DNA of 64,000 bases from an uncultured Bacteroidales bacterium. Its GTDB lineage: Bacteria; Bacteroidota; Bacteroidia; Bacteroidales; FEN-979. Below are positions 6,901-32,479 of the stretch, piece after piece (the stretch's first letter is position 1; every line of letters starts with the position of its first letter). Below the pieces are notes generated by a model. That model searched no databases. It was not told the origin of the DNA and saw only the letters and a program-made list of their open reading frames with translations. Location of the stretch: positions 18,635 to 82,634 of the forward strand of contig CAIVAT010000006.1 in the NCBI GenBank assembly GCA_903903985.1, written 5' to 3'. A program made the position numbers and the translations under genes.

Positions 6901-8439
6901 GCCAACAGCGGCATCACCGCCGGCAAGCCGCTGAAAACCATTCAGCATGCCAATGCAATTATGCGGGCCGACAGCAGCCATCATTACAGGATTCATCTTG
7001 CCGATGGCCGGTATAGTCCTTATACCAACAATGAACCTTTCCCGCTTAAGATCATTAATTACATCGACCTCCAGGGCACCGACGCCAATAACGTCATCCT
7101 CGATGCCGAAGGAAAAGCAAGGGTTGTTGTGTTTAATAACAATTCAACCTCGCACCTTTCTGGCATTACCATCACAGGGGGATCGGTTACCAATGAAAAT
7201 GGTGGTGGTATATTGTTTACCAATTCAAGTCCCACCCTCGAAAATATGACTATTACCGGTAATATTGCTGCGTCAGGTGGCGGAATTTTGTGCAATGTGA
7301 GTTCCAGTCCGAAATTTCAAAATGTCATCATTTCCGGTAATAATGCTTCTTTATCAGGCGGAGGAATTGAATGTCATTCCACCTCCAGCCCGACCTTTGA
7401 AAATGTTAGCATTACAGATAATTCAGCTCCACGTGGAGGCGGAATCGGTTGTTATGATGTTGCTGCACCTGTTTTTAAAAACGTGAACATAACGGGAAAT
7501 TCAGCCTTTGATGGTGGTGGTATCATCATTTCGGGTTCCGGAGATATTAGTTTCTGGCCCCTGGTTAAAATTGAAAACGGAACAATCTCTGGAAATTTTG
7601 CAACGAGGGGTGGCGGATTGTATTGCGAAAATTCAAAACTGACAGGCATCGATCTGGCAATCACCGACAACGAAGCTACGTGGGGTGGAGGCTTTTTCCT
7701 GAACAGTTCGAGGCCCACACTCAGAAACATGACCCTTGCCGGAAATAAGGCCGACAGTGCCGGAGGGGGCATTTATAGCCGCAGCGATAATAAATTTACA
7801 ATGTCAAAAATAGTGAACAGCGTTCTCTGGAATAATCTTCCCCAGGAAGTCTATTTCAGTCAAAGTTATAATATGAATGCAATGATAATTTCTTATTCCG
7901 ACCTCAAAGGAGGACAAGGAAGTATTATTACCTCAGGGATGGATACGGTCGTATGGCAGGAAGGAAACATCCCAGCTGATCCATTATTTGTCGGCGGTGG
8001 TGCCTATCCCTATTCATTCATGGCGGGCTCGCCTTGCCGCGATGCAGGCATGCCTGATACGACCGGGCTCCGACTTCCATTGACCGACCTTGCTGGCGGC
8101 CCCAGGATATGGAATGAGCGGGTCGATATGGGCGGGTATGAGTGGAATAACGTGGGTATTGGGGATTTACGTACTACGAATTACGATTTGCGAATTACCA
8201 GTTATCCAAATCCTTTTTCTGACCAAACAACATTCTCCTATGAGGTGCCTGAATCCTCAAGGGTAACCCTTCAGGTATTCAATAGCATCGGGCTTTTGGT
8301 AGCTGATCTGGTGAATACCACTCAACCCAAGGGAACATATAAAATTGAATGGAATGCTGGCGGACTGCAGGCAGGAGTATACTTTTACCGGGTTCAGGCC
8401 GGGAAACTGGCAGGGGGAGGGAAATTGGTGAAACTATAG
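3910..8439 (+). CDS. Giant secreted right-handed beta-helix repeat protein with a T9SS C-terminal sorting domain
   Basis: Signal peptide. Dozens of N/S-x-A-x-x-GGGI beta-helix turns. Three ~340-370 aa modules start at nt 4561, 5575 and 6682 (FDSIN[LR]CNI[FY]FN...DADL[FY]VS..G.N.NSG...ADS.H.H.IH). The tail YPNPFSDQTTFSY...GVYFYRV is a T9SS CTD. Confidence 0.9.
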   Translation: MKTITFLSAILLIADVLFAQIIHIPADYATIQQGINAANSGDTVLVSPGTYQENINFNGKMITVASLFLTSQDPYYILHTLIDGQQQGIVVTFGNAEDSTSILSGFTITNGGNVNYLMMGGGIHCYTASPKLTNLIITGNSVNFQGPYNNWGGGISCTSYSSPILLNVKITGNHSNYGGGLKCDYYSNPVLSNVSISDNSASASGGGIYCDETSRPVFDSINLCNIFFNSASDGNDIYSNAFLDVIVDTFSVLNPTEYYASPFANFSFDIRHGNLLPVNADLFVSPSGNNSNSGLTASDPLKTIHHAIAIMSADSLHPHTIHMLEGKYSPTTNNEIFPILLPAFMSLAGVSDTSVILDAENSSRVLKVVNNTSSHISGMTITRGSISGENGGGVFCSNSNPVFEHVIITGNSAQRTFTGWWGVEFWYGGFGGGIYFENSSPKLQHVQITHNTASYGGGIAYSGSIPTLEDIEIADNFAQIAYGWWYGSDGGFGGGMYFTNSSPKLHRIKVTQNTANSGGGISYSGSNPNLGEVTVTYNKAASRGGGILFGGSGGVFDSINRCNIYFNIAPEGRDLYSDSYVKVVADTFTVQHPTAYYAEPFNNFSFNVLHGKIPQVDADLFVSAYGDNANSGLSDTVPLRNISYAFPFLRADSLHHHTIHMLVGWYNYWSTSETYPIMIPDYIDLAGINTRNVLVYGNDTSEIFLFRNNTSSHLSGMTIGGGKNSGVVCLHSSPILENLYISYNSGNKGGGVNCDQSSPTLRNVTITNNSAIDFDWSLGNGGGIYCGANSNPVLENSTISYNQASSGGGIYCGINSSPILKNTVLSHNSAVASGGGACIDNFSGALFDSVKVFGNSAFYGGGVGCLPNAMPTLKNVFITSNTAEYGGGMSCTNSNSGLLTNDFISGNTASRQGGGIFFDGQFSVFDSINRCNIYFNEAPEGRDLYSATKIKVVADTFSVLHPTAYYAEPIDNFTFNILHGKIAQADADLYVSPAGNNANSGITAGKPLKTIQHANAIMRADSSHHYRIHLADGRYSPYTNNEPFPLKIINYIDLQGTDANNVILDAEGKARVVVFNNNSTSHLSGITITGGSVTNENGGGILFTNSSPTLENMTITGNIAASGGGILCNVSSSPKFQNVIISGNNASLSGGGIECHSTSSPTFENVSITDNSAPRGGGIGCYDVAAPVFKNVNITGNSAFDGGGIIISGSGDISFWPLVKIENGTISGNFATRGGGLYCENSKLTGIDLAITDNEATWGGGFFLNSSRPTLRNMTLAGNKADSAGGGIYSRSDNKFTMSKIVNSVLWNNLPQEVYFSQSYNMNAMIISYSDLKGGQGSIITSGMDTVVWQEGNIPADPLFVGGGAYPYSFMAGSPCRDAGMPDTTGLRLPLTDLAGGPRIWNERVDMGGYEWNNVGIGDLRTTNYDLRITSYPNPFSDQTTFSYEVPESSRVTLQVFNSIGLLVADLVNTTQPKGTYKIEWNAGGLQAGVYFYRVQAGKLAGGGKLVKL

Positions 8440-8973
8440 TGTGTAAATTCCAATTTCGTCACGGCATTTCGGGCAAAGATGCTGATCTTTCAGGTCTATG
8501 TCTTCCACATAGGTGCTTGAACGCATGACACAGGTTGGATGATGGCAATGGATCAGCCCAAGCGTATGTCCGAGTTCATGAATTACCTCCTTCCTGAAAC
8601 GATCCAATACAAAACGGCTGTCTTCAATCATTCCGTATCGTTCGTTGCTAAACCGGTAGAGTGAAGCAATTCCAGACCGGCCTCCTAAATAGGCCTGTCC
8701 GAAGATAAAAGTAAGGATGGGAATAAAAAGGTCGACGTTAAATAATCCAAGAGTTTTTGAATAATCAGGAACAACCATGGAATCGACCTGTCTCAGCAAT
8801 GAGTTCCCATCGTATTGCCTGCGTGCCGCATCATAAAAATCACTCAGATCGATATGCCCTTCCTTTAACAAAACCGGAGTGGAAAACTCCTGTTTCACCG
8901 CGTCTGCGGTCATTTCAAGAAGATCTTTCTCGAAGTATCCAAAGGAGATTAAGGCGATGTTTTGCAGATTCAT
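8434..8973 (-). CDS. amzA: Archaemetzincin-type zinc metallopeptidase (family M54)
   Basis: Signature HELGHTLGLIHCHHPTCVM...CPKC, i.e. HExxHxxGxxxCxxxxCxM followed by CxxC. Confidence 0.8.
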   Translation of the reverse strand: MNLQNIALISFGYFEKDLLEMTADAVKQEFSTPVLLKEGHIDLSDFYDAARRQYDGNSLLRQVDSMVVPDYSKTLGLFNVDLFIPILTFIFGQAYLGGRSGIASLYRFSNERYGMIEDSRFVLDRFRKEVIHELGHTLGLIHCHHPTCVMRSSTYVEDIDLKDQHLCPKCRDEIGIYTL

Positions 8974-8979
8974 CAGACA

Positions 8980-10326
8980 CTATTGTTGGTCTGCGGGTTT
9001 TAAATCATATTTTTTGATTTTATGATAAAGTGTCACCCGGTCGACTTTTAATGCCTTTGCTGTACGGGAAATATTCCAATTATATTTATGGAGGACCTGG
9101 AGTATAAAGGCTCTTTCGAAATCATCAAGGCTTTCAGTGGAGTTGGTCACAATCGTTTTTTCAAGGGGGAGGTCTTTCAACCCGATTTTCTTGCCATCTC
9201 CAACAACGATAGCCCGTTCAACCATGTTCTCAAGCTCACGGATATTCCCGGGAAAACTGAAATCCTGCAATCGTTTTAAAGCCGTTTGATCTATTGGGAT
9301 CGGAGGTTTGTTCATGGAGGTGCAATACTTTTTAATGAAATAATCGACAAGCAGGGGGATGTCAGTTTTACGTTCTCTCAATGGTGGAATATGAATGTTT
9401 ACTACGTTGAGCCTGTAAAAAAGATCTTCTCTGAAGGTTCCATTTTCCACCATCATTTTCAAATCCTTGTTTGTTGCACAGATTACCCTGAAGTCGGAGG
9501 TGATTTCCTTGTTTCCGCCAACCCGGATAAACGTTTTCGACTCAAGCACCCTCAGCAGTTCAACTTGCATTTTTGTAGAAATGGTGGCGATTTCATCCAG
9601 GAAGATCGACCCGCTGTCGGCCATTTCAAACCGCCCTTTGCGATTGTACATGGCTCCGGTGAAAGCTCCTTTTTCATGGCCGAATAACTCGCTTTCGAGC
9701 AGGCTTTCGGTCAATGCCCCGCAATGGACACTTACAAAGGGAAAAAATTTCCTGGGTGAATTGGCATGAATGGCCCTGGCGACGAGTTCTTTTCCGGTGC
9801 CACTCTCGCCGGTAATGATCACGGAGGAATTGGTTTGTGCGACACTCTCAATTTCCCCAAGCACAATTCTCATGGCTTCACTGTTCCCGATCAGGTCTTC
9901 CACATTCTCCAGTGCGACCACCTTGTTTTTTAAGGTTTCATTTTCTTCAGATAAAGAAATTTGTTTGGTAGCGTTCCGGATCAAATGTGTTAAATCATCC
10001 GGATCAAAGGGTTTTGTGACATAATCAAAGGCACCGTCCTTCAGCGCCTTAACAGCAGTATCAACCGTTGCAAATGCGGTCATGACAATGACAATGGAAT
10101 CTTTTTTCAACGCCTTTATCCTGCGGAGCATCTCAAGTCCATCCATTCCTGGCATTTTAATATCAGCAAGAATGATATCAAACTGGTCGGATTCAAGCAT
10201 GGTCAATGCTTTCTTTGCATTTTCGGCGCATTCAACACGATATCCGTCTTCAATAAACCAGTTGAAAAGCGAATCTCTTACAGATTCTTCATCGTCCACA
10301 ATCAGTATGGAAATTTTTTTCGCCAT
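8980..10326 (-). CDS. Sigma-54-dependent response regulator (NtrC family: receiver + AAA+ + Fis-type HTH)
   Basis: Receiver motifs LIVDDE...DIKMPGMDG; Walker A GESGTGKE; sigma-54 contact loop ESELFGHEKGAFTGA; C-terminal HTH NISRTAKALKVDRVTLYHKIKKY. Confidence 0.92.
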   Translation of the reverse strand: MAKKISILIVDDEESVRDSLFNWFIEDGYRVECAENAKKALTMLESDQFDIILADIKMPGMDGLEMLRRIKALKKDSIVIVMTAFATVDTAVKALKDGAFDYVTKPFDPDDLTHLIRNATKQISLSEENETLKNKVVALENVEDLIGNSEAMRIVLGEIESVAQTNSSVIITGESGTGKELVARAIHANSPRKFFPFVSVHCGALTESLLESELFGHEKGAFTGAMYNRKGRFEMADSGSIFLDEIATISTKMQVELLRVLESKTFIRVGGNKEITSDFRVICATNKDLKMMVENGTFREDLFYRLNVVNIHIPPLRERKTDIPLLVDYFIKKYCTSMNKPPIPIDQTALKRLQDFSFPGNIRELENMVERAIVVGDGKKIGLKDLPLEKTIVTNSTESLDDFERAFILQVLHKYNWNISRTAKALKVDRVTLYHKIKKYDLKPADQQ

Positions 10327-10338
10327 CAGGTTTTCTCC

Positions 10339-12006
10339 TTAATTTTTTATCAAAGGTAACGTAACTGAAATGGTCGTACCATGCCCAAGTTCAGATTTGA
10401 CGAGTATTTTCCCTTTGTGGTTCTGAACAATTCCATGAACAATGGCCAGCCCTAATCCGATGCCGCTGGCATCCTGTTTTGTCGAAAAGAATGGTTCAAA
10501 AATGTGCGGAATATCTTCCGCGGCAATACCCAGTCCGTTATCAATAATTTCAAAGTTAACTGTTTCATCATCATTATTTTTGGTCTTGATCTGGATCTCC
10601 CCGTTTTCAAGTACCGCTTCGGAGGCATTTACGATCATTGCCACACATGCCTGCTTGATCTGGTTCGGGCTGCAGTATATCAGATCGGACCTGGCAGAAA
10701 GATCTGCAATGAAACTGATATTGGCAATTTTTATCGGATGGATCATCAAATCATAGGTATCCTGGAGTATGTCATGCAGATGCCTGGGCTCAAAATCATC
10801 CTGATCTTTTCTTGAAAAATCCAGCAGGCTTTTAACGATGTCTCCGCACCGTTTTGTTTCATTTTCTATCAGCTTTAAATGTTTGAGCATCGAATCCTTT
10901 TTAGCATCGTTCAATTCGGGGTTGCTCAATTGCTTATAGAGTAGTTTTGTGTAAATCAGGATTCCCGACAAGGGGTTATTGATCTCGTGGGCAACGGAAG
11001 AGGATAACTTTCCAAGCGAGGCCAGCCTCTCCACATGCATCAGTTCATTTTGCGCTGCACCCAATTCCTCCGACTTTTTCTGAACTTTGTATTCAAGTTG
11101 CTGCGACCAGTTTTCCAGCTCGTTCGTTGCTGCTTCAAGGTTATCAAGCATTTCATTGAATGCTTTGGAAACCATCCTCATATCGTCCAGCTGATTGGGC
11201 TTAATTTCAACCCGGGTGCTTTTATCTCCGTTGGCAACAGCAATGCTCGCTTTGATCAATGCGTTTAAGGGGTCTTTGATGCGCCTTCTCGTAAATAAAA
11301 TTAAAAATGAAAAAAGAAACAATGTAATGAAAATGGCAAGTAAATAAAATTCGATGGACGACTTTTTTACAGCCCTATCGAGCTCTTCCAGGGGAATTTT
11401 AATGATCAGTGAACCAAGCACTACATCAGTTGCCTTATGTGCATGACATGAACTGGCATAGCACGACTTTTCATTCAGGATAGGCGATCGGATCAACAGG
11501 TGCCGGCTCCGGTTATCATTTTGAATCATCTTGCAATCACTGTTTACATCGATGATTTTATAGGAAGTGTTTTTGCCGGGAAACATTGACCTGATGTTGG
11601 CATGGCAGCTGATACAATTGGGGTTGCTGTGGCTGCGGCTTGTATCAGAGGCAATGGATGAATAAACCAGGTAATCTTCATTATCATACATGTTCACTTC
11701 GTCGATTCCCGGCAGGGTGTTGATAATATCAAGCGTGAACTGGAGTGAACTTTTATTGTTCTCCAGCATGGAATGATACAACGCGCCCTCAACGATGGAG
11801 CCGATGTTGCTGCCACTCTGCCGGATGACCGTATTCAGGTACTGCTCATTGACCGATCTGAAGATGATGCTGAAGGATACAAAAAGGAAAACAGATAAAA
11901 TAGTGATCGCCAATACAACACGGCCATAAATCGAAGATCGGAATTTAACATACTTTTTATAAATTCCATTCCCATTGCTGTTCGGTTGTTTTTTCCTTAA
12001 AAACAT
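10339..12006 (-). CDS. Sensor histidine kinase (2 TM, periplasmic domain with CxxCH and Cx4CH motifs, HAMP, HisKA, HATPase_c)
   Basis: TM helices at about aa 28-50 and 219-238. CISCH at aa 131-135 and CYASSCH at aa 182-188 lie between them. H-box SSVAHEINNPL. C-terminal G-boxes DNGLGI and GIGLGLAIV. Confidence 0.9.
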   Translation of the reverse strand: MFLRKKQPNSNGNGIYKKYVKFRSSIYGRVVLAITILSVFLFVSFSIIFRSVNEQYLNTVIRQSGSNIGSIVEGALYHSMLENNKSSLQFTLDIINTLPGIDEVNMYDNEDYLVYSSIASDTSRSHSNPNCISCHANIRSMFPGKNTSYKIIDVNSDCKMIQNDNRSRHLLIRSPILNEKSCYASSCHAHKATDVVLGSLIIKIPLEELDRAVKKSSIEFYLLAIFITLFLFSFLILFTRRRIKDPLNALIKASIAVANGDKSTRVEIKPNQLDDMRMVSKAFNEMLDNLEAATNELENWSQQLEYKVQKKSEELGAAQNELMHVERLASLGKLSSSVAHEINNPLSGILIYTKLLYKQLSNPELNDAKKDSMLKHLKLIENETKRCGDIVKSLLDFSRKDQDDFEPRHLHDILQDTYDLMIHPIKIANISFIADLSARSDLIYCSPNQIKQACVAMIVNASEAVLENGEIQIKTKNNDDETVNFEIIDNGLGIAAEDIPHIFEPFFSTKQDASGIGLGLAIVHGIVQNHKGKILVKSELGHGTTISVTLPLIKN

Positions 12007-12074
12007 GGCATCACATTGTTTGGAATATGAACTAAATACTGAGGATCAACAAGTAACTTTTGATTGCAAATTAC

Positions 12075-12099
12075 AAAAAAACTGGTGGAAATACACCAG
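12075..12099 (-). terminator. Candidate intrinsic terminator closing the NrfCD/GcvH-like unit
   Basis: Minus strand reads ctggtg-tatttc-caccag followed by TTTTTTT. It lies between the stop at 12277 and the kinase start at 12006. Confidence 0.5.
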
Positions 12100-12276
12100 T
12101 TTTAAATTTATATTTTCAGGTCGGATGTCCGATATATATGGTAAGGTGAATTGCAATATTTGTCCCTGGTGCACTTAGAGCTTGTTTCGCTAACATTGTG
12201 GTTCAATGATTTAACTTATTGCCACCAATGGACGCAAAATTTTTTATAAATGGCACAAAGACTTTTCAACCTTCTG

Positions 12277-13005
12277 TCACACGGGCAAACGATAGAGGTT
12301 TAAAAATTCTTTCTGGAAATCCTTCCATATTTCCTCGGGCAAGGATGCCAGTGTGTGATCGGATAATTCGCCTCCATCCTGCAAAACAACCATGGATGTT
12401 TCCGGTGAGCAGGATTTCATGGTCGTTGCCAGGAAATCCTTGAATCGGAGTAGTTCATTGGCAGACCAGTTTGTTGCATCATCGGCAAAATAACATGATT
12501 TTATCTCCGCGATCCAGTTGGTGGGTTTAATCTTATAAATCCATCCTTTGCCATATGGATCTTCATTCAGCACTTCAGTGCGTTCACTCAGCAGGGAGTT
12601 CGTACTCAGGATTTTCCCTGAAACTGGTGAGAAAATGCTGAGCAATTTGCCGTTCTGATCTATTTCAGTCAGCAATTCCCCTTTGCTGATCATCTCACCG
12701 GGCTTTTTAAGGCTGGTGAATTTCACCTCTCCGGTAATATGCAGTAAAAGATCATCAAGCCCGATTGCAGCGGCTCCTGACTTTTCCATATACATCCACG
12801 TGTGGTTGTTGCTGTAAAACAATCCCTGCGGAATTTTCAGCATGCTGGCTGAAAGGATACCCAGTGCTTTTTGAATCCGGGTGCCAATTTTTACCTGTTT
12901 GTTCAATGCGATCGAAAAAGGGACCAGCAAGGCCAGGAAAGCGATGATAATGAGATATTCCAACCCCTTGGTTGCGAAAATATCGTAATAACTGAATCCG
13001 TCCAT
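12277..13005 (-). CDS. N-terminally membrane-anchored GcvH-fold (glycine-cleavage H-like) protein with a conserved C-terminal extension
   Basis: One TM helix (LEYLIIIAFLALLVPFSIAL) followed by a K/R-rich stretch. HTWMYMEK..AAIGLDD...PVSGKI...EDPYGKGWIYKIKP aligns by eye with the E. coli GcvH pattern HEW...VGIT...PVSGEI...PYAGGWIFKIK. Confidence 0.8.
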   Translation of the reverse strand: MDGFSYYDIFATKGLEYLIIIAFLALLVPFSIALNKQVKIGTRIQKALGILSASMLKIPQGLFYSNNHTWMYMEKSGAAAIGLDDLLLHITGEVKFTSLKKPGEMISKGELLTEIDQNGKLLSIFSPVSGKILSTNSLLSERTEVLNEDPYGKGWIYKIKPTNWIAEIKSCYFADDATNWSANELLRFKDFLATTMKSCSPETSMVVLQDGGELSDHTLASLPEEIWKDFQKEFLNLYRLPV

Positions 13006-13013
13006 AATTTTAT

Positions 13014-14240
13014 TTATTTGTTTTCATTAACCCATGATGGTGAATCACGCAATACTGGCATGCGTTGAATGACCCACCTGAAAATCCATATTTCTGTAAA
13101 TATCACGGCCAGGGTAACGGTAAATTCCATCCATGACGGAACATATCGAATGGCCATATCCCACCTGAACCCGATAACCGTGACATTTAACCTGTTTAAA
13201 ATGACGCCTGCCATGGTGATGATGGCTGCAATTTTAATTAGTTTAATATTATTGGTCCTGTAACTGATGAAGAACAGGATCATTGGAAAAAGGACAAACC
13301 CGAGCATTTCAAGCAGGAACCAATACCCCATCGGGGTGTTGAGAAGATCCCAGTTTTGCCCGTGAATAAAGACAAGCAATTGAAGGAAAAAATAAGCAAA
13401 CATGGCACCTGCACAGATCTTGGATAACCCGCGTATGATGTCTTTCTGTGCCTGATGATTTTTTTCACTGATCTGCGCGAAAAAAACCTTGTGGCTGATG
13501 GATCCTTCAAAAATGACCATGGATAACCCGGCGAAAATACTGGATACCAAAAACATGATTGGAATAAATTCCGAATACCACAGCGGATGTATCTTATCTT
13601 TGGCCATGAGGTAAAGCGCACCCAATCCCGATTGATGAAGGGTCGACAGGGTGATTCCAAAAATAACAGCAGCAATGGTCATCCCTGAAAGGATTTTTCG
13701 GGCTCGTCTTGCCCCAAGCCATTCTGCCACAGCTGGTGAAAATTCAATCAATTCGGCAATCATGTATAAAAGAAAATGCCACGCCACCAGGAAAAGAACA
13801 GAACTGGTACCAAAACCGTTCCCGATAATAGGGTTGATCACATGCCATGGCCGCCCCAGATCGAGAAGGAGCGCCCCGGCATAGAACACATAGGCGAGAA
13901 AACCATTCAAAACGGTAACTCTGACGATTGAATGGTACTTGCGCATATTCAGAATATAAACCATGAACGTAAGTACATAGGCCCCGCCGGCAAAAGCTAC
14001 TCCGGTGACCACATCGAAACCAATCCATAATCCCCACGGGATCTCCTGCGTCAGGTTTGTAATAGAGCCGATTCCCTTCCAGAAACGGATGATAATTAAC
14101 ACCAATCCCAAAAGCATGACCGGAATCGAAATAATGTTAAAAGGCGTCAGCCACTTTCCTTTGGGCCTGAATTCGCTTACCAGGAATTTCCACATGGAAT
14201 TCCCATCGCGGTCACCGATGATCTGAGGACTGTTACTCAT
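13014..14240 (-). CDS. NrfD/PsrC/HybB-family polytopic membrane (quinone-interacting) subunit
   Basis: About 10 hydrophobic helices and the position directly after an NrfC-like Fe-S gene. I prefer the start ATG at 14240 (MSNSPQ), which overlaps the upstream stop by 8 nt, to the ORF-track extension to 14315. Confidence 0.8.
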   Translation of the reverse strand: MSNSPQIIGDRDGNSMWKFLVSEFRPKGKWLTPFNIISIPVMLLGLVLIIIRFWKGIGSITNLTQEIPWGLWIGFDVVTGVAFAGGAYVLTFMVYILNMRKYHSIVRVTVLNGFLAYVFYAGALLLDLGRPWHVINPIIGNGFGTSSVLFLVAWHFLLYMIAELIEFSPAVAEWLGARRARKILSGMTIAAVIFGITLSTLHQSGLGALYLMAKDKIHPLWYSEFIPIMFLVSSIFAGLSMVIFEGSISHKVFFAQISEKNHQAQKDIIRGLSKICAGAMFAYFFLQLLVFIHGQNWDLLNTPMGYWFLLEMLGFVLFPMILFFISYRTNNIKLIKIAAIITMAGVILNRLNVTVIGFRWDMAIRYVPSWMEFTVTLAVIFTEIWIFRWVIQRMPVLRDSPSWVNENK

Positions 14241-15099
14241 CTTCTTTCTCTTCGTTAAGGTGACTGTCTTTTGTGGATTGATGGATTCCCAGTAACAATG
14301 CCGGTACAAGCACAAATACGGAAGGAACGGTGTAGAGAAATCCTTTTGTCAGTGCGGGGTAAGAAGACTGCTGAAGGTTTGTATTCATCCCCAATTCTTC
14401 AAAAGGAACCGGCGAAAGGTACAACCATCCCGTACCACCCGCGGCATGTTCTCCATAGATTTGATCGACATACAACCCTGGCTTTTCTGAAATTCTGCGA
14501 TGTCCTTCTTTGATCAGGTCCCTGCGCTTTCCATATAGCAGTGCTTCATTGGGGCAATTGAAGGCACAGGCAGGGCTTTCTCCGGTTTTCAGCCTTTCAA
14601 AGCACATGTCGCATTTTTGAATTTTCGGGTTTGCACTGTGAAATTCAAATTTCGGCATGTCCCAGGGGCAGGAAACCATGCAGTAACGGCATCCCATGCA
14701 TTTATTGCCATCCCAGGTAACCGGTCCCATTTTTGTTTTATGCATGGCTTGCGTTAAACATGCAGCGACACAGGCCGGTTCATTGCAATGCATGCATTGC
14801 CGTTTTATAAAAACTTCCCCTTTAGATGTTTTATACTTGTTAACAACGGTGTTACAGGTTTCATCTGTTTTACGCACGGCTGCGATCTTATTTGAGGGCA
14901 GAGGTTCCGGTAAATGATGCGCCTCCTCGCAGTCATATTCACATCCACGGCAACCCTTGCAACGGGTTGAATCGTAAAGGATGCCGTAGAATTCCACATC
15001 ATTTTTGCCTTTGGAAGCGGCAATCGTATCTTTCCCAATGGCCAGTGTCATCCCAGTGACGCCCAACACTTTTAAAAAGCCTCTTCGGTTAAGTCCCAT
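14233..15099 (-). CDS. Tat-exported 4x[4Fe-4S] ferredoxin-type subunit (NrfC/HybA/DmsB family) with a C-terminal TM anchor
   Basis: Twin-arginine signal NRRGFLKVLG. Four Cys groups: CKGCRGCEYDC, CMHCNEPACVAAC, CMGCRYCMVSCP and CDMC...CAFNCP. C-terminal helix LYTVPSVFVLVPALLLGI, as in HybA. Confidence 0.88.
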   Translation of the reverse strand: MGLNRRGFLKVLGVTGMTLAIGKDTIAASKGKNDVEFYGILYDSTRCKGCRGCEYDCEEAHHLPEPLPSNKIAAVRKTDETCNTVVNKYKTSKGEVFIKRQCMHCNEPACVAACLTQAMHKTKMGPVTWDGNKCMGCRYCMVSCPWDMPKFEFHSANPKIQKCDMCFERLKTGESPACAFNCPNEALLYGKRRDLIKEGHRRISEKPGLYVDQIYGEHAAGGTGWLYLSPVPFEELGMNTNLQQSSYPALTKGFLYTVPSVFVLVPALLLGIHQSTKDSHLNEEKEDE

Positions 15100-15120
15100 G
15101 ATTCAACATTTTTTATATAA

Positions 15121-15200
15121 AACCACCTCTCCCGAACCCTATCGTCTAAGAAAGGGAATACTCCCGTCTCCCATGGGAGACGGGGTTGGGGGATGAGATA
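15121..15200. repeat. REP-like intergenic element, family D copy 1
   Basis: agggaatactcccgtctccc-at-gggagacggggttgggggatgag shares its flanks and a hairpin with the copies at 34421-34496 and 53560-53735. Confidence 0.8.
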
Positions 15201-15203
15201 AAG

Positions 15204-16901
15204 TTATCTTGCGTTGTCAATAAATTTTGTCTGAAAATCTTCCCAAACCTCAGGTCCCAGATCTGCAAGCAAGTTGTCTTTCAATACACCACCATCCTGG
15301 AGCACAACAGTGGCAAATTCAGGAGTGGTGATCTTTGCCATAAAGGATGCCAGGAAATCTTTTAGCCTTGAAAATTCTCCTTTTAACCAGGTTGTATATT
15401 TTTCAGACATATTAAGAAATTGGATTTCACGCATCCAGTTTGCAGGCTCGATCGTGTATACCCAGCCATCCGTATAAGGTGCGGAGTTAAGGAATGTGGA
15501 ATTGGTAACCACCGCTTTATTATGCGTGGTAATCGTACCGGATACAGGAGCGTAAACCTTCAATTGCTTTCCTTTCTGAACCAGGGTGAGCAACCAATCT
15601 CCTTTTTTTATCTTGTCTCCGGCATTTTTCAATTCGATTCGTGTGATGGGGCCTGTTACATGCTGAAGGAAATCATCGATGCCAATTTTCACCAGGCCAT
15701 CCTTTTCCATGAAAGCCCAGGTATGGGTTTTATCAAAATATAAGCCCTTCGGGATTTTCACGGAATTTTCATCAAACGCAGCAGTAAAATGGGTAGGAAT
15801 AGGAGCGGCAGCCCCTTTATTCTTTCTGGTTTGCCTGTAAGCCTGCATCATGATAACACCAATTACCCCTAATGCGATTAAAACTAAAAGCAATATCCTG
15901 GTATTGGCGTAAGATTTATTTTCCGTGGGGGTTAAATAAATTGCAGAACCATTGATTTTAGCAAGTTGTGTTTCTCGTTCATTGTTAACAAGATCACAAT
16001 ATCCATTCATGCTCAAATACTGTTGTCCATCAGCGAGTACCCAATTCAGGAATGACACTGCCGTTGCATTTATCGGTTTTGCGGGAGAGATAGAATAAAT
16101 ATTGCCAGAGAGGGCTTTGGGATATTTTCCAATCCAGACTCCCCGGGAGAAATCCTTGAGGTTGTCATAAATATTTTCCATATAATCAATCTTCCTGTTG
16201 CCATTTTTATCAATCGGTAGAAGTTGAATATTTTCGCCAAAACATTGTTTATGAACATCAACAATATCAACCAGTTTGCAAAAGCCAATTGCATCCGGAT
16301 CATTTTGCACAGCTGAGATCATTTCTTTACTGGTCGTTAATTTTATTCCTGGAAATTTACCCTGGCTGGTTTTCAGAAAATGTTCCACAGCAGACCCAAC
16401 AGATGCCTCATCCGTGTAATATAAATGCAATGGACGATCATGGCCGGCTCCAAGGACCATTTCCCAATTTTGTTTATCCGGATTGTTAAATATTCTTGAT
16501 AAATCTTCTGTTGCAACCCCCTTCCGGTTGATTTCATCCAGAAAAGGATTTTTTGAATTTATTATGGGTACGGTCACGTCGCGGCCTACAATTATTGTCC
16601 AGAGGGATTGATTGTCAATTGCTGTAATTGATTCACCCGTGACAAATCCAACTTCAGCATTGTTGGCCGACATATCGGACATATTGATAACCGGAGATTT
16701 AATCACATTGATTTTCAAGCCCGGGTTCAATTTAGAATATTCACTGGCTAACCTTTGGGTCAGATTATATAAATCCGGTGAGGACAGCACATTCATTGAA
16801 CCATTCTGGGAGAGACGGCTATCAGTTAATGTTTTATTACTGATTGCAATACTGCAATTTAGCAGTAAAAATCCGATAATTAAAAAGATCCAGGTTTTCA
16901 T
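15204..16901 (-). CDS. Fusion protein: periplasmic PstS/PBP-like-2 substrate-binding domain, one TM helix, then a cytoplasmic GcvH-fold domain
   Basis: Signal/lipobox-like N-terminus. PBP-like blocks (IFNNPDKQNWEMVLG...PLHLYYTDEASVGSAVEHFL...AIGFCKL). TM helix ILLLVLIALGVIGVIMM followed by RQTRKNK. Then HTWAFMEK..VKIGIDD...APVSGTI...PYTDGWVYTIEP. Confidence 0.8.
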   Translation of the reverse strand: MKTWIFLIIGFLLLNCSIAISNKTLTDSRLSQNGSMNVLSSPDLYNLTQRLASEYSKLNPGLKINVIKSPVINMSDMSANNAEVGFVTGESITAIDNQSLWTIIVGRDVTVPIINSKNPFLDEINRKGVATEDLSRIFNNPDKQNWEMVLGAGHDRPLHLYYTDEASVGSAVEHFLKTSQGKFPGIKLTTSKEMISAVQNDPDAIGFCKLVDIVDVHKQCFGENIQLLPIDKNGNRKIDYMENIYDNLKDFSRGVWIGKYPKALSGNIYSISPAKPINATAVSFLNWVLADGQQYLSMNGYCDLVNNERETQLAKINGSAIYLTPTENKSYANTRILLLVLIALGVIGVIMMQAYRQTRKNKGAAAPIPTHFTAAFDENSVKIPKGLYFDKTHTWAFMEKDGLVKIGIDDFLQHVTGPITRIELKNAGDKIKKGDWLLTLVQKGKQLKVYAPVSGTITTHNKAVVTNSTFLNSAPYTDGWVYTIEPANWMREIQFLNMSEKYTTWLKGEFSRLKDFLASFMAKITTPEFATVVLQDGGVLKDNLLADLGPEVWEDFQTKFIDNAR

Positions 16902-16936
16902 TTTTTTTCAAATTATTTTGATGATGACACTTGCTG

Positions 16937-16952
16937 TTCAATTATAGTGCCA
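16937..16952 (-). promoter_or_regulatory. Candidate sigma-54 (-24/-12) promoter for the PBP-GcvH/NrfCD unit
   Basis: Minus strand reads TGGCAC-TATAA-TTGAA about 36 nt upstream of the ATG at 16901. The -24 box is perfect, but the -12 box is TTGA rather than TTGC. Confidence 0.4.
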
Positions 16953-17008
16953 AACCATAATTCAATGCTTAAATAGCATATAATCAATGTTATATAGAAT
17001 TAGTGTGG

Positions 17009-17058
17009 AAAAAATAAGCAAATGAAAGTGCTGATATTTTCAACACTTCCATTTGCTT
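17009..17058 (-). terminator. Intrinsic terminator after the choice-of-anchor-L gene
   Basis: Imperfect ~14-bp stem (aagcaaatgaaagtg / cacttccatttgctt) followed on the minus strand by a TTTTTT tract. Confidence 0.55.
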
Positions 17059-17155
17059 GTGAATCTAATAAACAGATTATTAGGAGTTTAACGATGGTGT
17101 AAATATTTTATACACCTGTTGAATTATTCAACATATTCTCTGTCTCAACTAAAAA

Positions 17156-19534
17156 CTATTGAATAACCAGTTTTGCTGAACCGGTGAAATTCTCACTTTG
17201 GACACGTAAAATATACATCCCGGGAGGAATGCCTGAAATATCGAAAACATGCTCCATCATTGGATTTGTATCTCTTTTGATTGTGGCACCTAATAATTTT
17301 GTACCGAACATGTTAATGAGTTCTGCATATACATGGTCACTGACATTCCGGATAAACACCCTGAAAGTTCCATGTGCCGGATTTGGATAAACTGAAAAGT
17401 TGGCGTTCCTGGTGTGTTCCTCCAGTCCAACACAATTATCGAAGACAAATGCAATATGGATCGTTGCTGTATTGCTGCACCCATCTTTGTTGGTCACCAT
17501 GACGGAATAGGTTTGCACATCGTAACCGATTCCGGCTGTTGAAACTGTAAGATAGCGGCTTGTTGATCCGGTCGACCATGAGTAGGCGATCCCCTGGTTT
17601 CCTGCATCAAGGCGAATTGTGTCATAAATGCAAACAGAAGAATCGGCCGGACCGAGATAAACATAAGGCAAAGGATAAACCACCACGCTGGTATACCCGG
17701 TAAGCTGGTTGAAGCCATCGGAGACTACAACATGGTAAGTGGTTGTTTCATTTGGGGTAACCAGTGGATTAGCCTCCTGTGATGTAAAATCACCCGGAGC
17801 AGAACTCCAATGATAGGAATAGTTGCCGGAACCACCCCCGGATAAAACAAAAAGTTGCGCCGTATCACCGAGGCATATTGCATTGGGAGTTGAAACGGGG
17901 TTGATCGAGAGTGGTCCTCCCTCTACCGTTATGATCACCTGCGAAGGAAAACTTTCACAACCACTTGCAAGGTCTTTAACCCGGAGAATATAAATTAATG
18001 TCTGGCCCATGTTGCCCGTGGACGGGTCAGGTACCGATGAGTTAAATCCGGAAGGATTTGAAGTCCAGGAGTAGCTGTAGTTTCCATACCCTCCACTTGC
18101 GGTTCCATGCAACGTAGTGCTGGTACCATTGGCAATGGTAACATTGCTGCCGGCATCGGCCAATGGAACCGGATGGACCAAAGCGATGGTCGTATCGTAT
18201 ACCGAATGAGCACACACATCAGTTACTTTCACCGTATATATATTGGTCCCCACGGGCGGAGTAATGACAACAGTGCTGTCATTTCCCGGGATATTCCAGT
18301 AGTAATTCAATGGCATAATCCCTCCGCTGGTATTTGCCTTTAGTTCAACAGTACCGCCATAACACAGGGTTGTATCCGGATTTGGGACAAGAGACATAGG
18401 GGTATAATCATCAATGTAGACCGTATCCCTTTTGATTATTCCATCGCAGGATATCTGATTCAATGTGATGATGACCATCTTTTGGCCTTCAGGAATGTTG
18501 TCAGGAATAGGGTGGATGACAACATTGACACTATCCTGTCCTGGACGAAAAGTCACGAAATCGCCGATTGTTGAATAATCAATGCCATTCACGGCAGTGC
18601 CACCGATTGTATAATGAATGGTGTAAGGGTAATCAAGTAATGCCATCAGCCTGAAATTAATGGCAACATCATTGCATCCTTCAACTGCTTTGCTGCCAAG
18701 TTGAAGGATTGAATTGCTGTTGATCATATTTACACCCGGGCTGCTGAAACTGTTTTGTTCAAGAAAAACCCCGGAGTCCAACTTTTTATCAACCGCATCA
18801 CCGATGGCCAGTTTGATATGGTATGTTGAACAGGGTTGAACCACATGCCAGGCACTGAAAACATAGGTCAGTCCATCGTACTGGTAATATTGACCACCCG
18901 GGTTCGCCCACCTGGATGCAGTGTTCGCACAAATATTGTTGATGGTCACAAACGTGTTCATGGAACCGGGCATGAGAGCGATATTGACACTGTTGTTGGA
19001 ATAAGGTCCGCTGATCCCGGGTCCGCTGAGGAAAAATCCGAATGCGTCGTTAAATTCGTTACAATATTCGAAAAACTCCTCAGAACCAAAAACATAACGG
19101 AACCGGACTGTGTCAAATTGCGGAATGAAATCAAATTCTATCACAGCTTTGTCAAGCGTGTTTGACCCTGACAGGGAATTCAGGTCCGGGTCACCTGGTC
19201 CTCCAACCTGAGCACCTGCACCACTTTCATCATTTGGTCCAATGGCAATGCTTGCACTTCCCGTTGTCATAAGGATTCCGCCTGTCAGGCCTAACTGTGA
19301 GGCGGCAACACCTGCAGTGGCGAAGGATCCAACCTGGTTGGATGAAATGACACCCGATGTACCGTTAAATGTAACGTTACTGATGGTAATGCCTTCGCCA
19401 ACCAGGTAATTCTGAACCAATTGCTCGGGAGTCATGTTCATAGCGGAACCCTGTACCACCGTCAGTTGCGCATGTACAAGGCTGGTGAGCATCAGGCATG
19501 TTCCAATGATAAATATGTTAAAATATTTTGCCAT
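17156..19534 (-). CDS. Secreted choice-of-anchor-L domain protein with a Calx-beta-like domain, Ig-like repeats and a T9SS CTD
   Basis: GDPDLNSL...IEFDFIPQFDTVRFRYVFGSEEFFEYCNEFNDAFGFFLSGPG (choice-of-anchor L). YTIGGTAVNGIDYS...VIHPIPDNIPEG (Calx-beta-like). Tail VYPNPAHGTFRV...GMYILRV. Confidence 0.85.
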   Translation of the reverse strand: MAKYFNIFIIGTCLMLTSLVHAQLTVVQGSAMNMTPEQLVQNYLVGEGITISNVTFNGTSGVISSNQVGSFATAGVAASQLGLTGGILMTTGSASIAIGPNDESGAGAQVGGPGDPDLNSLSGSNTLDKAVIEFDFIPQFDTVRFRYVFGSEEFFEYCNEFNDAFGFFLSGPGISGPYSNNSVNIALMPGSMNTFVTINNICANTASRWANPGGQYYQYDGLTYVFSAWHVVQPCSTYHIKLAIGDAVDKKLDSGVFLEQNSFSSPGVNMINSNSILQLGSKAVEGCNDVAINFRLMALLDYPYTIHYTIGGTAVNGIDYSTIGDFVTFRPGQDSVNVVIHPIPDNIPEGQKMVIITLNQISCDGIIKRDTVYIDDYTPMSLVPNPDTTLCYGGTVELKANTSGGIMPLNYYWNIPGNDSTVVITPPVGTNIYTVKVTDVCAHSVYDTTIALVHPVPLADAGSNVTIANGTSTTLHGTASGGYGNYSYSWTSNPSGFNSSVPDPSTGNMGQTLIYILRVKDLASGCESFPSQVIITVEGGPLSINPVSTPNAICLGDTAQLFVLSGGGSGNYSYHWSSAPGDFTSQEANPLVTPNETTTYHVVVSDGFNQLTGYTSVVVYPLPYVYLGPADSSVCIYDTIRLDAGNQGIAYSWSTGSTSRYLTVSTAGIGYDVQTYSVMVTNKDGCSNTATIHIAFVFDNCVGLEEHTRNANFSVYPNPAHGTFRVFIRNVSDHVYAELINMFGTKLLGATIKRDTNPMMEHVFDISGIPPGMYILRVQSENFTGSAKLVIQ

Positions 19535-19538
19535 TTTG

Positions 19539-22500
19539 CTACTTCGCTATTTCGCTATATCCTTCTTTCATTACCTCGCTGCTCAATAATGCTTCATAAA
19601 GCACCTCAATGGGATGAAGCGCCTTTCTCCCGGTACCATCCATGATCTGGTGACGACAGGAAGTTCCGGGTGCGGCGATGATTACATCCCTTGCGGCCTT
19701 TCTGATTTCAGGGAATAACACGAGTTCTCCGACCTGCATCGACACATCATAATGTTCTTTCTCATAGCCAAATGACCCGGCCATTCCGCAACAACCCGAC
19801 TTAATTTCCTCCACCCTGTAGTTCACAGGAATTGACAGCATCCTTTTCATCGGCTCCACCGATGCCAGGGCTTTCTGATGGCAATGCCCGTGTAGTTTGA
19901 TGATCCTTTCCCGATCCGTAAAAAGTCCGGATAAGGGGTGAATATGCTCCTGCTCCTTTATGGGGGAGGACCGAGTTGGGTGTTGCAAAATAAACTCATC
20001 AAACATAAGTGCGTTCTTTGCAAGTTTTAAAGCGGCTTCTTTCAAAGGGGCATCGACCAGGTCGGGATATTCATCACGAAAAGTAAGAATCGCGGATGGT
20101 TCAATCCCAATTAACGGGGTCTCCGGTGTGATCAGGTCTTTTAACTTCTGAACATTATCATTGGCCAGCTTTTTAGCTTTTCTGATGAGTCCTTTCGAAA
20201 GAAAAGTACGGCCACTTTCACAATGATCCGGAATGAGGACGCGGTAACCGAAAGCATTGAGCAATATGATCGCCTTTATGCCAACCTCCACATCGTTGAA
20301 ATTTGAGAATTCATCAGCAAACAAATAAACGATCGGTCCTGAAGTTCCTGCGCCGGCAGCTTGTGGTGAAATTCTGCCATCGTAAAGATTTTTTACGGCC
20401 CATACACGGAGTGTAGTATTGTATAGCAATGGAACATGCCTTTCCGGTGCAAACCGAAGGAGTTTTTTTGTGATCCCTGAAAGGAATTTATTTGTCTGGA
20501 AGATATTGAAGAGGGCAGGAGATATGGTTCCCAATTTGTTGATCAGGCTGATGTTAGCGATAAGCCATGACCTGAGCGGAATTCCATTGGAGTCATACCA
20601 GTGCTGAAGGAATTCTGCTTTTAATTTGGCGATATCCACGTTCGAAGGGCATTCTGATTTGCAGGCCTTGCAGGAGAGGCAAAGATCCATCACTTCATAA
20701 ATCTCCTTATGATCAAAGGGATTCGTTTTGGATGAATTGGTGAGGAACTCCCTGAGAATGTTCGCTCTTGCACGGGTAGAAGTATTTTCATCTTTTACAG
20801 CCATATACGACGGACACATATATCGGCCGGTGATCACGGTGTTACGGCAGTCGCCTGAGCCGTTGCACTGTTCTGCCGCACGCAGGATCCCATGGCTTCC
20901 CGAAAAATCAAATGTTGTCGGGATGTCACGCGATGGTTTTCCAGGCACAAACCGCAGGCTGGTATTCATTTTAGGAGTATCAACAATTTTATTGGGATTA
21001 AAAATGTTTCCCGGATCCCAAACCTCCTTTATACTCTTGAACAGGTCGTAATTCTTCTGTCCGAGCATGAATGGGATAAATTCACCTCGCAGCCTGCCAT
21101 CGCCGTGTTCTCCTGAGAGCGATCCATTGAATTTTTTCACCAGTTTTGCTGTCTCCTGGGCTACGGTATGAAAGAGTTCAACATCTGCAGGATCTTTGAG
21201 ATTCAGTACAGGCCGGAGATGCAGCTCCCCTGAACCGACATGGGCGTAATAAACGCAGTCAAGTCCCAACCGGGCAAGCATAGTATTGAATTCTCCGATA
21301 TACTCAGGAAGTACTTCCGGGTTTACAGCGGTGTCTTCTGTTACCGGAACAGGCTTACGGTCGCCGGGATAGTTGGAAAGCACTCCCAGTCCTGCCTTAC
21401 GCAGATCCCAAACTTTTTTAACATCCGGCGGAAAGATGATCGGGAAGTGATATCCAAGGCCGGCAGCGCGCATCTCTGCTTCAAGCCGGTGAAAAATGTC
21501 CATGATCTCCTCCCTTGAATCGCGGGCAAACTCAACAATCAGGATTGCCCCGGGATCGCCATCAATGAAAAAACGGTTCTGCCGCTGCGTAATGTTATCT
21601 TTGGTGCAGTCCATGATGGCTTTATCCATCAATTCCACCGACCCCGGTTGATATTTTAATGCTACAAGATTGGCTTTCAATGATTCAGCAATAGTGTGGC
21701 AATGAATACACACCAGGGCTTTCTCCACCGGAGGCAATGGAACAAGGTTCAGTTTTATTTCGGTGATAAACATGAGCGTACCTTCACTGCCGGCAATAAG
21801 TTTGCTGAAGTTGAACCGAGACGGGTGACGGGTGACGGGTGACGGGAATCCTGATATATGTGATTCGTGAAGGGTGGTGGCTGATTCATAATTTGGTTCC
21901 AGGTGATTTTCACTTGTCACCCGGATCGCATCACCTTCAAATGGTTCTGTTTCCAGCAGCAGGTCAAGCGCATAACCGGTATTTCTCCTGTGAATAGAAG
22001 GATCAGGGTATTCTTTGCGGATGTTTTCCTGTGTCGCGGGGTCTGAAAGAATTTCATGTATTTGCCGGTAGATTTTATTTTCAAGAGCATTCCCCTGGCA
22101 TTTGTTCCTGAACTCATCTGTGGAAAGTTCCTTAAATTCCACGTCGGAGCCATCACTCAGGAACCCTTTTACAGAAATCACGTGATCACGGGTACTGCCA
22201 TAAAGGATTGAGTGGGCTCCGCAGGAATTGTTTCCAACCATGCCCCCCATCATGCAACGGCTTGAGGTACTTGTTTCGGGGCCAAAGAAAAGGCTGTATT
22301 TTTCAACTGCTTTGTTGAGTTCATCCAGGATCACCCCGGGTTGTACACGGACCCATTTTTCGGCGGGATTGATTTCCAGGATGTTGGTCATATAACGCGA
22401 TATGTCCACTACCAGTCCCTGCCCGACCACCTGACCGGCAAGGGAGGTGCCTGCTGCACGTGGAATCAGGGGGATTTTTATTTCATTTGAGAACCGGATC

Positions 22501-27143: not shown

Positions 27144-27382
27144 AAAGCAGTTTTTAGTCCATGATTGGATAAAACATCCCTGTTTTCAACAATATGGATC
27201 ATCCCCTGCCGGGCCATCCCGGGCTTCCACTGGGATAAAAGCGGGAATCCGGGATATTTCTTTTTCTGTGCATTCGGAAATTTCATAAAGCTCTTGCTGG
27301 CGGTGACAATCCCGGAACCATCTGCATATAGCCGGTAACTTCCTGCAGGAGAATTTTTAGAGAGGTGGCTGTATTTCATCAT
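27140..27382 (-). CDS. Hypothetical 80-aa protein
   Basis: It fills the gap between two kinase genes, and its stop overlaps the downstream start by 4 nt. No recognisable motif. Confidence 0.3.
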   Translation of the reverse strand: MMKYSHLSKNSPAGSYRLYADGSGIVTASKSFMKFPNAQKKKYPGFPLLSQWKPGMARQGMIHIVENRDVLSNHGLKTAF

Positions 27383-27394
27383 GAAGTTTCAAAA

Positions 27395-29842: not shown

Positions 29843-29956
29843 GTTCTTCAGGTTGCGTTAACCCGGTAAATTCTTCAGCGGCTGAAAAATCCCTCTTGTA
29901 AAGGTAATCAATAAATCAATGGTTAGTAAACAGAACCTAAAAAGAGGGTGAATAAC

Positions 29957-32425: not shown

Positions 32426-32479
32426 ATAAACTTTGTTTTTAGCTTTGGCAATATAACCCGGAACCAAGAGCCCATGGGG

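Follow-up and report, generated by a model that had tools for sequence, protein, structure and literature searches.

A conserved Hmc/Nhc-like iron-sulfur/NrfD gene pair without a catalytic partner, bracketed by membrane-tethered GcvH-fold proteins, in an uncultured Bacteroidales bacterium

Gene content and conservation of the cluster

A 64,000-nt stretch of DNA from an uncultured Bacteroidales bacterium (contig CAIVAT010000006.1; this 64-kb stretch is called the window below, and all positions refer to it as a whole) carries a cluster of minus-strand genes centered on an iron-sulfur (Fe-S) protein resembling HmcB and HybA and an NrfD-family membrane protein resembling HmcC and HybB. The pair is bracketed by genes for two membrane-anchored proteins with the fold of the glycine cleavage H protein (GcvH), a long upstream type (A-type) and a short downstream type (D-type), and is followed by genes for a sensor histidine kinase, a sigma-54-dependent response regulator, and an M54 peptidase (Table 1). 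A first-pass annotation made from the sequence had proposed that the first four co-directional genes form one unit, and their order does recur in 80 Bacteroidota loci and in Marinisomatota. These four genes hold together as proposed, but the conserved unit is larger and includes the kinase, the activator, and the peptidase. The stop codon of the Fe-S gene and the start codon of the NrfD gene overlap by 8 nt (14233-14240), as previously reported, and the gaps are 104 nt between the A-type and Fe-S genes and 8 nt between the NrfD and D-type genes.

A word-indexed search found 1739 homologues of the D-type protein. When the representatives of 50%-identity clusters were searched exhaustively, 305 clusters were recovered at E ≤ 1e-30, and these fall into two architectures of about 240 and about 560 aa. 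In a scan of one genome per species, at least 511 genomes had a relative of the D-type protein. Synteny was surveyed in the best 80 of these, nearly all of them Bacteroidota metagenome-assembled genomes (MAGs), including members of the Bacteroidales, Prolixibacteraceae, and Lentimicrobiaceae. The gene order, namely, periplasmic binding protein (PBP)-GcvH, HmcB-like, HmcC-like, transmembrane (TM)-GcvH, kinase, sigma-54 regulator, and M54 peptidase, is kept in essentially all 80 loci wherever the contig reaches, at 38 to 90% identity, and any further gene family is common to at most 5 of the 80. Distant relatives (35 to 57% identity) in Marinisomatota and other metagenomic lineages have the same core. 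The single exception seen to the seven-gene order is a 7.2-Mb chromosome (OW818689.1; L171), in which the kinase gene is followed by a gene for an outer membrane beta-barrel and not by those for the regulator and the M54 peptidase.

Beyond the 80 loci, Pfam gene tables of three Marinisomatota loci and four further loci were inspected. No gene for a catalytic subunit (cytochrome, molybdoenzyme, or hydrogenase) was found in the cluster in the 80 Bacteroidota, the three Marinisomatota, or the four further loci. The absence described by the first-pass annotation thus extends to the cluster of every related locus examined, which argues that the catalytic subunit has not simply been lost in this genome. 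A tblastn search with HybC found no hydrogenase in the window or in the 80 Bacteroidota loci. The window has no open reading frame (ORF) with multiple CXXCH motifs, and there are two incidental cases among the 80 loci (L047 and L055). In L047, whose MAG is binned with the Chlorobiota, the M54 gene is immediately followed by an ORF of 827 aa (9817-12300) in which 16 CXXCH motifs are fused to a multihelix membrane domain; this ORF occurs in no other of the 80 loci.

The literature search found no published description of this arrangement, consistent with the earlier statement that it could not be assigned to any described system. A review of the NrfD family names two Bacteroidetes species with NhcC but says no more about them (PMC8076601). 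The component families are known, but their combination is apparently undescribed: a partnerless Hmc-like pair, two tethered H-fold subunits with a new tail, a kinase with heme motifs, sigma-54 control, and an M54 peptidase.

The iron-sulfur/NrfD pair and the GcvH-fold proteins

The Fe-S protein matches Pfam Fer4_11 (E = 4e-18), and its best NCBIfam match is HmcB at 316 bits (equivalog cut-off, 420), followed by HybA at 223 bits. Its twin-arginine translocation (Tat) motif (RRGFLK), C-terminal TM helix (residues 254 to 272), and 16 cysteines agree with the previous description of a Tat-exported 4x[4Fe-4S] protein with a HybA-like anchor. The cysteines fall into four groups, align with those of Escherichia coli HybA, and are kept in 72 of 72 orthologs. 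The NrfD protein matches Pfam NrfD (PF03916) at 52.3 bits against a cut-off of 25.8 (E = 8e-14), and its best NCBIfam match is HmcC at 400 bits (equivalog cut-off, 550), followed by HybB at 250 bits; hydropathy prediction gives 10 TM segments. The pair had been called an NrfC/NrfD pair, and the Fe-S protein does have the cysteine groups and Tat signal of an NrfC/HybA subunit of the complex iron-sulfur molybdoenzyme type. The best-matching families place the pair more specifically as a putative Hmc/Nhc-type module.

The conservation of individual residues was assessed by aligning E. coli HybB, to which the NrfD protein is 29% identical, with 66 NrfD orthologs. Mutation of HybB R89, Y99, E148, or H184 impairs hydrogenase-2 (Hyd-2) (as cited in PMC8076601), and these residues are kept in 63 to 66 of the orthologs. 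The wider set of D58, D109, S129, Y77, Y84, H85, R89, Y99, Y141, E148, E155, and H184 is kept in 59 to 66 of the 66, and most of the residues proposed for the cytoplasm-side (N-side) proton half-channel are retained, along with part of the quinone site. Given the HybB mutagenesis and the retention of channel residues, the pair looks like a functioning quinone/proton module rather than a relic.

The cluster resembles the Hmc and Nhc complexes of sulfate reducers (HmcABCDEF and NhcABCD) in combining a Tat-exported, tail-anchored 4x[4Fe-4S] subunit with a 10-TM NrfD subunit and perhaps also in the small single-helix subunit, which is encoded directly after the NrfD gene and in its relatives is weakly similar to HmcD. 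However, it lacks the multiheme cytochrome (HmcA or NhcA), which in those complexes is the partner of the Fe-S subunit (PMC8076601), as well as the cytochrome b (HmcE) and the HdrD-like HmcF. Its single-helix subunits also differ in bearing GcvH-fold domains that are predicted to be cytoplasmic, and the cluster occurs in Bacteroidota and Marinisomatota, under putative sigma-54 control, with scores below the equivalog cut-offs. The similarity to HybA and HybB of E. coli Hyd-2 includes the 16 aligned cysteines and the four residues at which mutation is damaging, whereas HybO and HybC are absent from the cluster.

Both proteins encoded at the ends of the four-gene group match Pfam GCV_H (PF01597), the A-type protein over residues 387 to 507 (E = 3e-23) and the D-type protein with an E value of 5e-22. 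They score 83 and 81 bits, respectively, against the NCBIfam GcvH subfamily NF002270 (cut-off, 117), and 66 and 73 bits against the GcvH equivalog TIGR00527, below its cut-off of 115.85. The fold is also matched in a PDB sequence search (1onl; E = 6e-16), and Foldseek comparison of AlphaFold 2 (AF2) models with GcvH structures gives target-normalized template modeling scores of 0.86 to 0.91 at root mean square deviations of 1.6 to 2.3 Å. With 28 to 30% identity to the GcvH proteins of Thermus and E. coli, both domains are predicted by the models to have a genuine H-protein fold. The GcvH-fold, NrfC-like, NrfD-like, and PstS-like assignments made earlier thus all pass profile and fold tests, the neighborhood is conserved, and a catalytic gene is no normal part of it.

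The A-type protein consists of an N-terminal signal/anchor helix, a periplasmic PstS-like domain, a TM helix (residues 336 to 354), the GcvH-fold domain (residues ~380 to 490), and a tail. The D-type protein starts with the motif DIFATKGLEY and a TM helix (residues 15 to 33), followed by the GcvH-fold domain and the same helical tail. Lys/Arg-rich stretches, RQTRKNK and NKQVKIGTRIQK, follow the TM helices of the two proteins. Because of these flanks, and of the N-terminal signal/anchor helix of the first protein, both H-fold domains should be cytoplasmic, as had been predicted. The conserved tail of ~75 aa (W..E..RFKDF ... LQDGGE ... W..FQ..F) is modeled by AF2 as a helix-loop-helix at low confidence (predicted local distance difference test score, 40 to 75) and gave no hit to Pfam families or PDB folds. 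In public databases, the two proteins go under the names "glycine cleavage system protein H" or "hypothetical."

The first-pass annotation had also drawn an analogy with the lipoyl swinging arms of GcvH, which is weakened by the hairpin sequence. Aligned with E. coli GcvH (ESVKA), both window proteins have Gly in the column of the canonical lipoyl lysine, and a canonical lipoylation site was rejected on this basis. A lysine sits one residue after the Gly, within a Q-x-G-K-x-L hairpin. Conservation was counted over 50%-identity cluster representatives (111 of the long A-type and 30 of the short D-type). The A-type hairpin G444-K445 is kept in 110 of 111, and its lysine is among the few invariant polar residues, with H393, D409/D410, N461, E509, R512, and Q535. 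In the D-type, the lipoyl column is Gly in 18 of 30, and the next position is Lys in 24, Arg in 4, Gln in 1, and His in 1. No lipoate ligase, LipA-like, Hdr-like, or glycine cleavage genes accompany the cluster in the loci examined. Overall, canonical lipoylation of the H-fold domains is not supported by the sequences, although some specific role for the A-type hairpin lysine is likely.

The window proteins share with GcvH and with LbpA of the sHdr system the fold and the motifs HxW, PxSG, and PY..GW. They differ in being membrane tethered, in their conserved C-terminal tail, in having Gly at the lipoyl-lysine position and Lys at the next one, and in the lack of P-, T-, or L-protein, Hdr-like, or lipoate ligase genes nearby; LbpA is associated with hdr-like genes and dedicated lipoate-protein ligases (PMC6067878). 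Weak Pfam/NCBIfam and Foldseek matches also link the H-fold domains to the N-terminal barrel-sandwich hybrids of NqrA and RnfC, which likewise are lipoyl-less and lie on the cytoplasmic side of membrane respiratory complexes. This likeness is much fainter than that to GcvH, and NqrA and RnfC belong to unrelated complexes, namely, flavin/Fe-S pumps for Na+ or H+.

The earlier idea of a quinone-linked Fe-S module coupled to the H-fold domains needs revision as regards the electron path. With the Fe-S protein on the periplasmic side and no redox cofactor in NrfD subunits (PMC8076601), there is no electron route by which the cytoplasmic H-fold domains could be the partner of the Fe-S clusters, and it is unlikely that they are the missing redox partner.

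The N-terminal motif of the D-type protein is near-invariant among its relatives ([ND][IL]FxTKGxEY, followed by the TM helix), and its gene directly follows the HmcC-like gene, the position that hmcD has after hmcC. Seven queries, the window's own N-terminal peptide included, were scanned against the 38-position HmcD profile (NCBIfam NF045712). Five of them (three full-length relatives and the N-terminal peptides of two relatives) gave subthreshold matches (E = 0.001 to 0.07) covering the same stretch of the profile, from position 8 or 9 to positions 33 to 37. For a relative, there is also a precomputed weak Pfam match of the D-type N-terminal segment to DVU_0533, which is HmcD (PMC10920352). 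The N-terminal helix of the D-type protein may therefore be weakly HmcD-like, a lead supported by gene position.

The Marinisomatota and one further lineage have a gene for a third H-fold protein, apparently a soluble one, between the downstream TM-GcvH gene and the kinase gene (L084:10796-11503, L085:10834-11553, L088:10769-11479, and L090:2944-3699). It has an N-terminal Cys-rich motif (C..W.E...V.Y[QK][LI]C.L..NC..C) and lacks the hairpin lysine.

Residues 38 to 290 of the A-type protein match Pfam PBP_like_2 (E = 6e-7), and the AF2 model of this periplasmic domain matches PstS structures in Foldseek (E = 5e-16 to 1e-11), indicating a type II periplasmic binding fold. The score against the PstS family TIGR02136 is 31 bits, below the cut-off of 206.6, and there are no ABC transporter genes (pstCAB) in the cluster. 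The first protein of the Marinisomatota clusters lacks the PstS-like domain, which is thus dispensable. The domain contains a 12-residue loop, D-K-N-G-N-R-K-I-D-Y-M-E (16176-16211; residues 231 to 242), that fits the EF-hand pattern for calcium binding and of which the pattern residues D231, N233, N235, D239, and E242 are invariant in 41 orthologs, as is its single cysteine, Cys208 (GFCKL; ~16278-16280).

Regulatory genes, promoter, and flanking features

As the first-pass annotation had it, a sigma-54 two-component pair with a putative heme sensor lies immediately downstream: a kinase with one CXXCH and one CX4CH motif, followed by a sigma-54 activator. Both motifs are in the periplasmic loop of the kinase, which has ~170 aa and also contains conserved His, Met, and Cys residues. 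They are kept in 70 Bacteroidota orthologs and also in Marinisomatota, and the kinase is the sole ORF in the window with heme c motifs in a plausible periplasmic setting. The periplasmic domain had no Pfam match even at E ≤ 10. The M54 peptidase gene is syntenic in both Bacteroidota and Marinisomatota.

Upstream of the first gene is a sequence that fits the sigma-54 consensus, GG-N10-TTG[ACG], i.e., TGGCAY-N5-TTG. The latter pattern occurs at positions -45 to -125 from the first start codon in about 63 of 64 loci; a score of at least 9 of 11 against the consensus is reached in 59 of 64, compared with 3.4% of shuffled sequences, and a sigma-54-type promoter is also found in Marinisomatota. Farther upstream are two enhancer-type palindromes, the distal of which is the single exact occurrence of TGTTGAA-N3-TTCAACA in the window. 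Such palindromes lie at about -93 and about -181/-162 from the promoter in 65 of 66 loci, Marinisomatota included, whereas 97% of shuffled controls had none. Elsewhere in the window, no further good enhancer palindromes, which could mark other members of a regulon, were found. The layout is classic for a sigma-54 promoter with upstream activator sites, which the adjacent, co-conserved activator is the obvious candidate to bind, and, because promoter and palindromes are both conserved, the four-gene operon is probably a sigma-54-dependent target of the adjacent two-component system.

The unit had been described as having its own terminators on both sides. Hairpins with T runs are present at both, but the proximal palindrome lies within the one on the upstream side (17016-17058), which is therefore not only, and perhaps not mainly, a terminator. 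In the gap between the first two genes is a GC-rich palindrome without a T run directly after it, which may form an intra-operon RNA hairpin affecting the relative expression of the genes. No Rfam families were detected in positions 8000 to 17500.

NtrC-type control of respiratory operons, as by HoxJ/HoxA for the uptake hydrogenase and in the TorS/TorT/TorC system, similarly places a kinase and a sigma-54 activator beside the regulated redox operon, with a tethered periplasmic binding protein domain and a heme protein near the sensor. Unlike in those systems, the heme motifs here are in the sensor domain itself and the binding protein domain is fused to an operon product.

TABLE 1 Genes and sequence features of the cluster, in order from the distal enhancer-type site to the peptidase gene
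Feature	Position	Strand	Length	Remarks
Distal enhancer-type palindrome	17117-17133			TGTTGAATAATTCAACA; TGTTGAA-N3-TTCAACA, perfect; 181 nt upstream of promoter
Proximal enhancer-type palindrome	17029-17045			12/14 match; -93 from promoter
Hairpin	17016-17058	minus		19-bp stem, then T run; after upstream type IX secretion system (T9SS) gene
Sigma-54-type promoter	16938-16952	minus		TGGCACtataaTTGA; starts 51 nt upstream of first ATG
A-type (upstream-type) GcvH-fold gene	15204-16901	minus	565 aa	
Palindrome	15163-15184		22 nt	CCCGTCTCCCATGGGAGACGGG; GC rich, perfect; in 104-nt gap between genes 1 and 2
Fe-S protein gene	14233-15099	minus	288 aa	HmcB/HybA-like
NrfD-family gene	13014-14240	minus	408 aa	HmcC/HybB-like; length from ATG
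D-type (downstream-type) GcvH-fold gene	12277-13005	minus	242 aa	
Intrinsic-terminator-like hairpin	12078-12103	minus		10-bp stem and T run; ends operon, separates it from kinase gene
Sensor histidine kinase gene	10339-12006	minus		Two TM helices, periplasmic loop, HAMP, HisKA, HATPase
Sigma-54-dependent response regulator gene	8980-10326	minus		REC, AAA+, HTH_8; syntenic in nearly all loci
M54 zinc peptidase gene	8434-8973	minus		Archaemetzincin type, cytoplasmic; 6 nt after regulator

Large T9SS-sorted surface proteins are encoded on both flanks of the cluster (3910-8439 and 17156-19534). Two genes upstream is a 1045-aa fusion of an FAD-linked oxidase and a 4Fe-4S dicluster region (19539-22676). 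Neither this oxidase, which is common to the closest relatives only (L008 and L013), nor the upstream T9SS gene, likewise common to close relatives only, was accepted as a member of the unit. Three more sensor histidine kinases, with PAS and PocR domains, are encoded in a row on the minus strand at 25692-32467.

Proposed function and competing explanations

Taken jointly, we consider it about an even call that the locus is a seven-gene system of two transcription units, one being the four-gene operon and the other comprising the kinase, the activator, and the M54 peptidase, and that it specifies a sigma-54-switched, Hmc/Nhc-type quinone module with non-redox H-fold appendages. The kinase would sense a periplasmic redox or ligand signal through the domain with two c-type heme motifs, and the regulatory unit would activate the four-gene operon via its sigma-54 promoter and palindromic enhancer sites. 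The operon would then build the Hmc/Nhc-type membrane module, in which the Tat-exported Fe-S protein could move electrons between a periplasmic partner and menaquinone/menaquinol in the NrfD-type subunit. The partner might be a carrier not encoded in the cluster or the kinase's own heme domain. The NrfD-type subunit would exchange quinone protons via the conserved cytoplasm-side channel, and the two single-pass subunits, the downstream one resembling HmcD, would complete the complex. The H-fold domains and their helical tails would not be electron carriers and would instead have structural, docking, or regulatory tasks on the cytoplasmic side. The gene content, folds, conservation, promoter and enhancer sites, cofactor motifs, and channel residues are observed; the direction and partner of electron flow, the assembly of a complex, and the role of the H-fold domains are deduced.

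Several observations weigh against this model. The Fe-S and NrfD proteins score below the NCBIfam cut-offs of their best-matching families and so do not classify as HmcB and HmcC equivalog members. The HmcD similarity comes from relatives, at subthreshold scores, and the window's own D-type protein had no match to NF045712. The electron transfer role is assigned by homology only, because no periplasmic partner was identified, and the binding of the palindromes by the adjacent activator is presumed from their co-conservation. The near-invariance of the A-type hairpin lysine suggests a specific chemical or docking role, which a structural appendage leaves unexplained, and the model gives the conserved M54 peptidase no role.

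An unlikely explanation, but the likeliest of the alternatives, is that the module is not a metabolic enzyme but part of the sensor. The Fe-S/NrfD pair would equilibrate the two putative periplasmic hemes of the kinase with the menaquinone pool, so that the Hmc/Nhc cytochrome in effect became the sensor domain of the kinase and the redox state of the quinone pool were reported to the sigma-54 regulon. The kinase contains the only heme c motifs of the cluster and the only plausibly periplasmic ones of the window, and these motifs are conserved across phyla along with the Fe-S/NrfD pair. In Hmc and Nhc, the partner of the Fe-S subunit is a multiheme cytochrome c (PMC8076601), and in Marinisomatota, where the PBP domain is missing, the cluster encodes just one other periplasmic domain, the kinase loop. 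However, the operon has its own sigma-54 promoter and enhancer sites and a terminator before the kinase gene, which fits a regulated target better than a constitutive cosensor, and the kinase loop has no detected sequence similarity to cytochrome c3 or HmcA.

A still less probable reading makes the pair the detached membrane anchor of an enzyme whose genes lie elsewhere in the genome, for example, a periplasmic [NiFe] hydrogenase, a formate dehydrogenase, or a soluble cytochrome network, with the cluster as the inducible half that couples this enzyme to quinone. HybA/HybB and HmcB/HmcC are the closest families, and three loci from Marinisomatota encode, 4 kb away, a hydrogenase of the Hyd-2 type with 56% identity to E. 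coli HybC. That hydrogenase nevertheless has its own hybO-hybA-hybB-hybC-hybD genes (L092 to L094) and no need of this pair; a role for the pair as its anchor was rejected, as the metagenome scan shows these operons to be complete. Furthermore, no hydrogenase was found in the window or in the 80 Bacteroidota loci, and the two H-fold proteins would be left unexplained. The Marinisomatota hyb operon is convergent to the cluster and about 3.5 kb from the M54 gene, with two genes resembling short-chain dehydrogenases/reductases or epimerases in between (L092:6520-12008, also in L093 and L094; in L084, L085, and L088 from about 18690).

We regard as doubtful the possibility that the H-fold domains are swinging arms whose hairpin lysine bears a prosthetic group, lipoyl-like or other, and which couple the module to cytoplasmic thiol, acyl, or sulfur chemistry. 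The GcvH fold is genuine, with 28 to 30% identity to the E. coli and Thermus proteins, the domains are predicted to lie in the cytoplasm, where lipoylation enzymes act, and the hairpin G-K is found in 110 of 111 A-type representatives, among few invariant polar residues. But the lysine is one residue off the canonical position, which holds Gly, and in lipoyl and biotinyl domains one-residue lysine shifts typically abolish modification by standard ligases. In addition, the D-type lysine is replaced by Arg, Gln, or His in 6 of 30 representatives, ligase, LipA-like, and Hdr-like genes were found in none of the loci examined, and a periplasmic Fe-S protein with a cofactorless NrfD subunit leaves no electron path to the arm. 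We give equally little weight to the specific version in which the near-invariant A-type lysine carries a covalent cofactor or intermediate. The two arms would then connect the quinone and proton reactions of the NrfD-type subunit with thiol, acyl, or one-carbon reactions in the cytoplasm, and the whole would be a membrane complex of a new kind that has no classical catalytic subunit.

The remaining idea, that an Hmc, Nhc, or Hyb operon decayed in this genome and the cluster is what was left after loss of the catalytic subunit, has the absence of a catalytic gene and nothing else in its favor and is refuted by the same gene set, with intact cofactor motifs and channel residues at 38 to 90% identity, in 80 syntenic loci and a second phylum and by a relative of the D-type protein in at least 511 species genomes.

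In many enzymes of anaerobic respiration, an NrfC/NrfD pair forms the core that couples to quinone, and such a pair normally takes its definition from the catalytic subunit that it serves. The version described here lacks that partner and yet is conserved across at least about 500 genomes, counted at species level, from anaerobic Bacteroidota and related groups, always accompanied by two tethered H-fold domains, a kinase with heme motifs, a sigma-54 activator, and the M54 peptidase. Its conserved promoter and palindromes offer a direct experimental handle on the system. The automatic annotation of its proteins as "glycine cleavage system protein H" misleads metabolic reconstructions of these bacteria, which are common in sediments and anoxic waters. 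Once known, the function of the module would either extend the Hmc/Nhc family by a new type of accessory subunit or expose a respiratory module that was taken over for redox sensing; a novel role for the H-protein arm is the less likely outcome.

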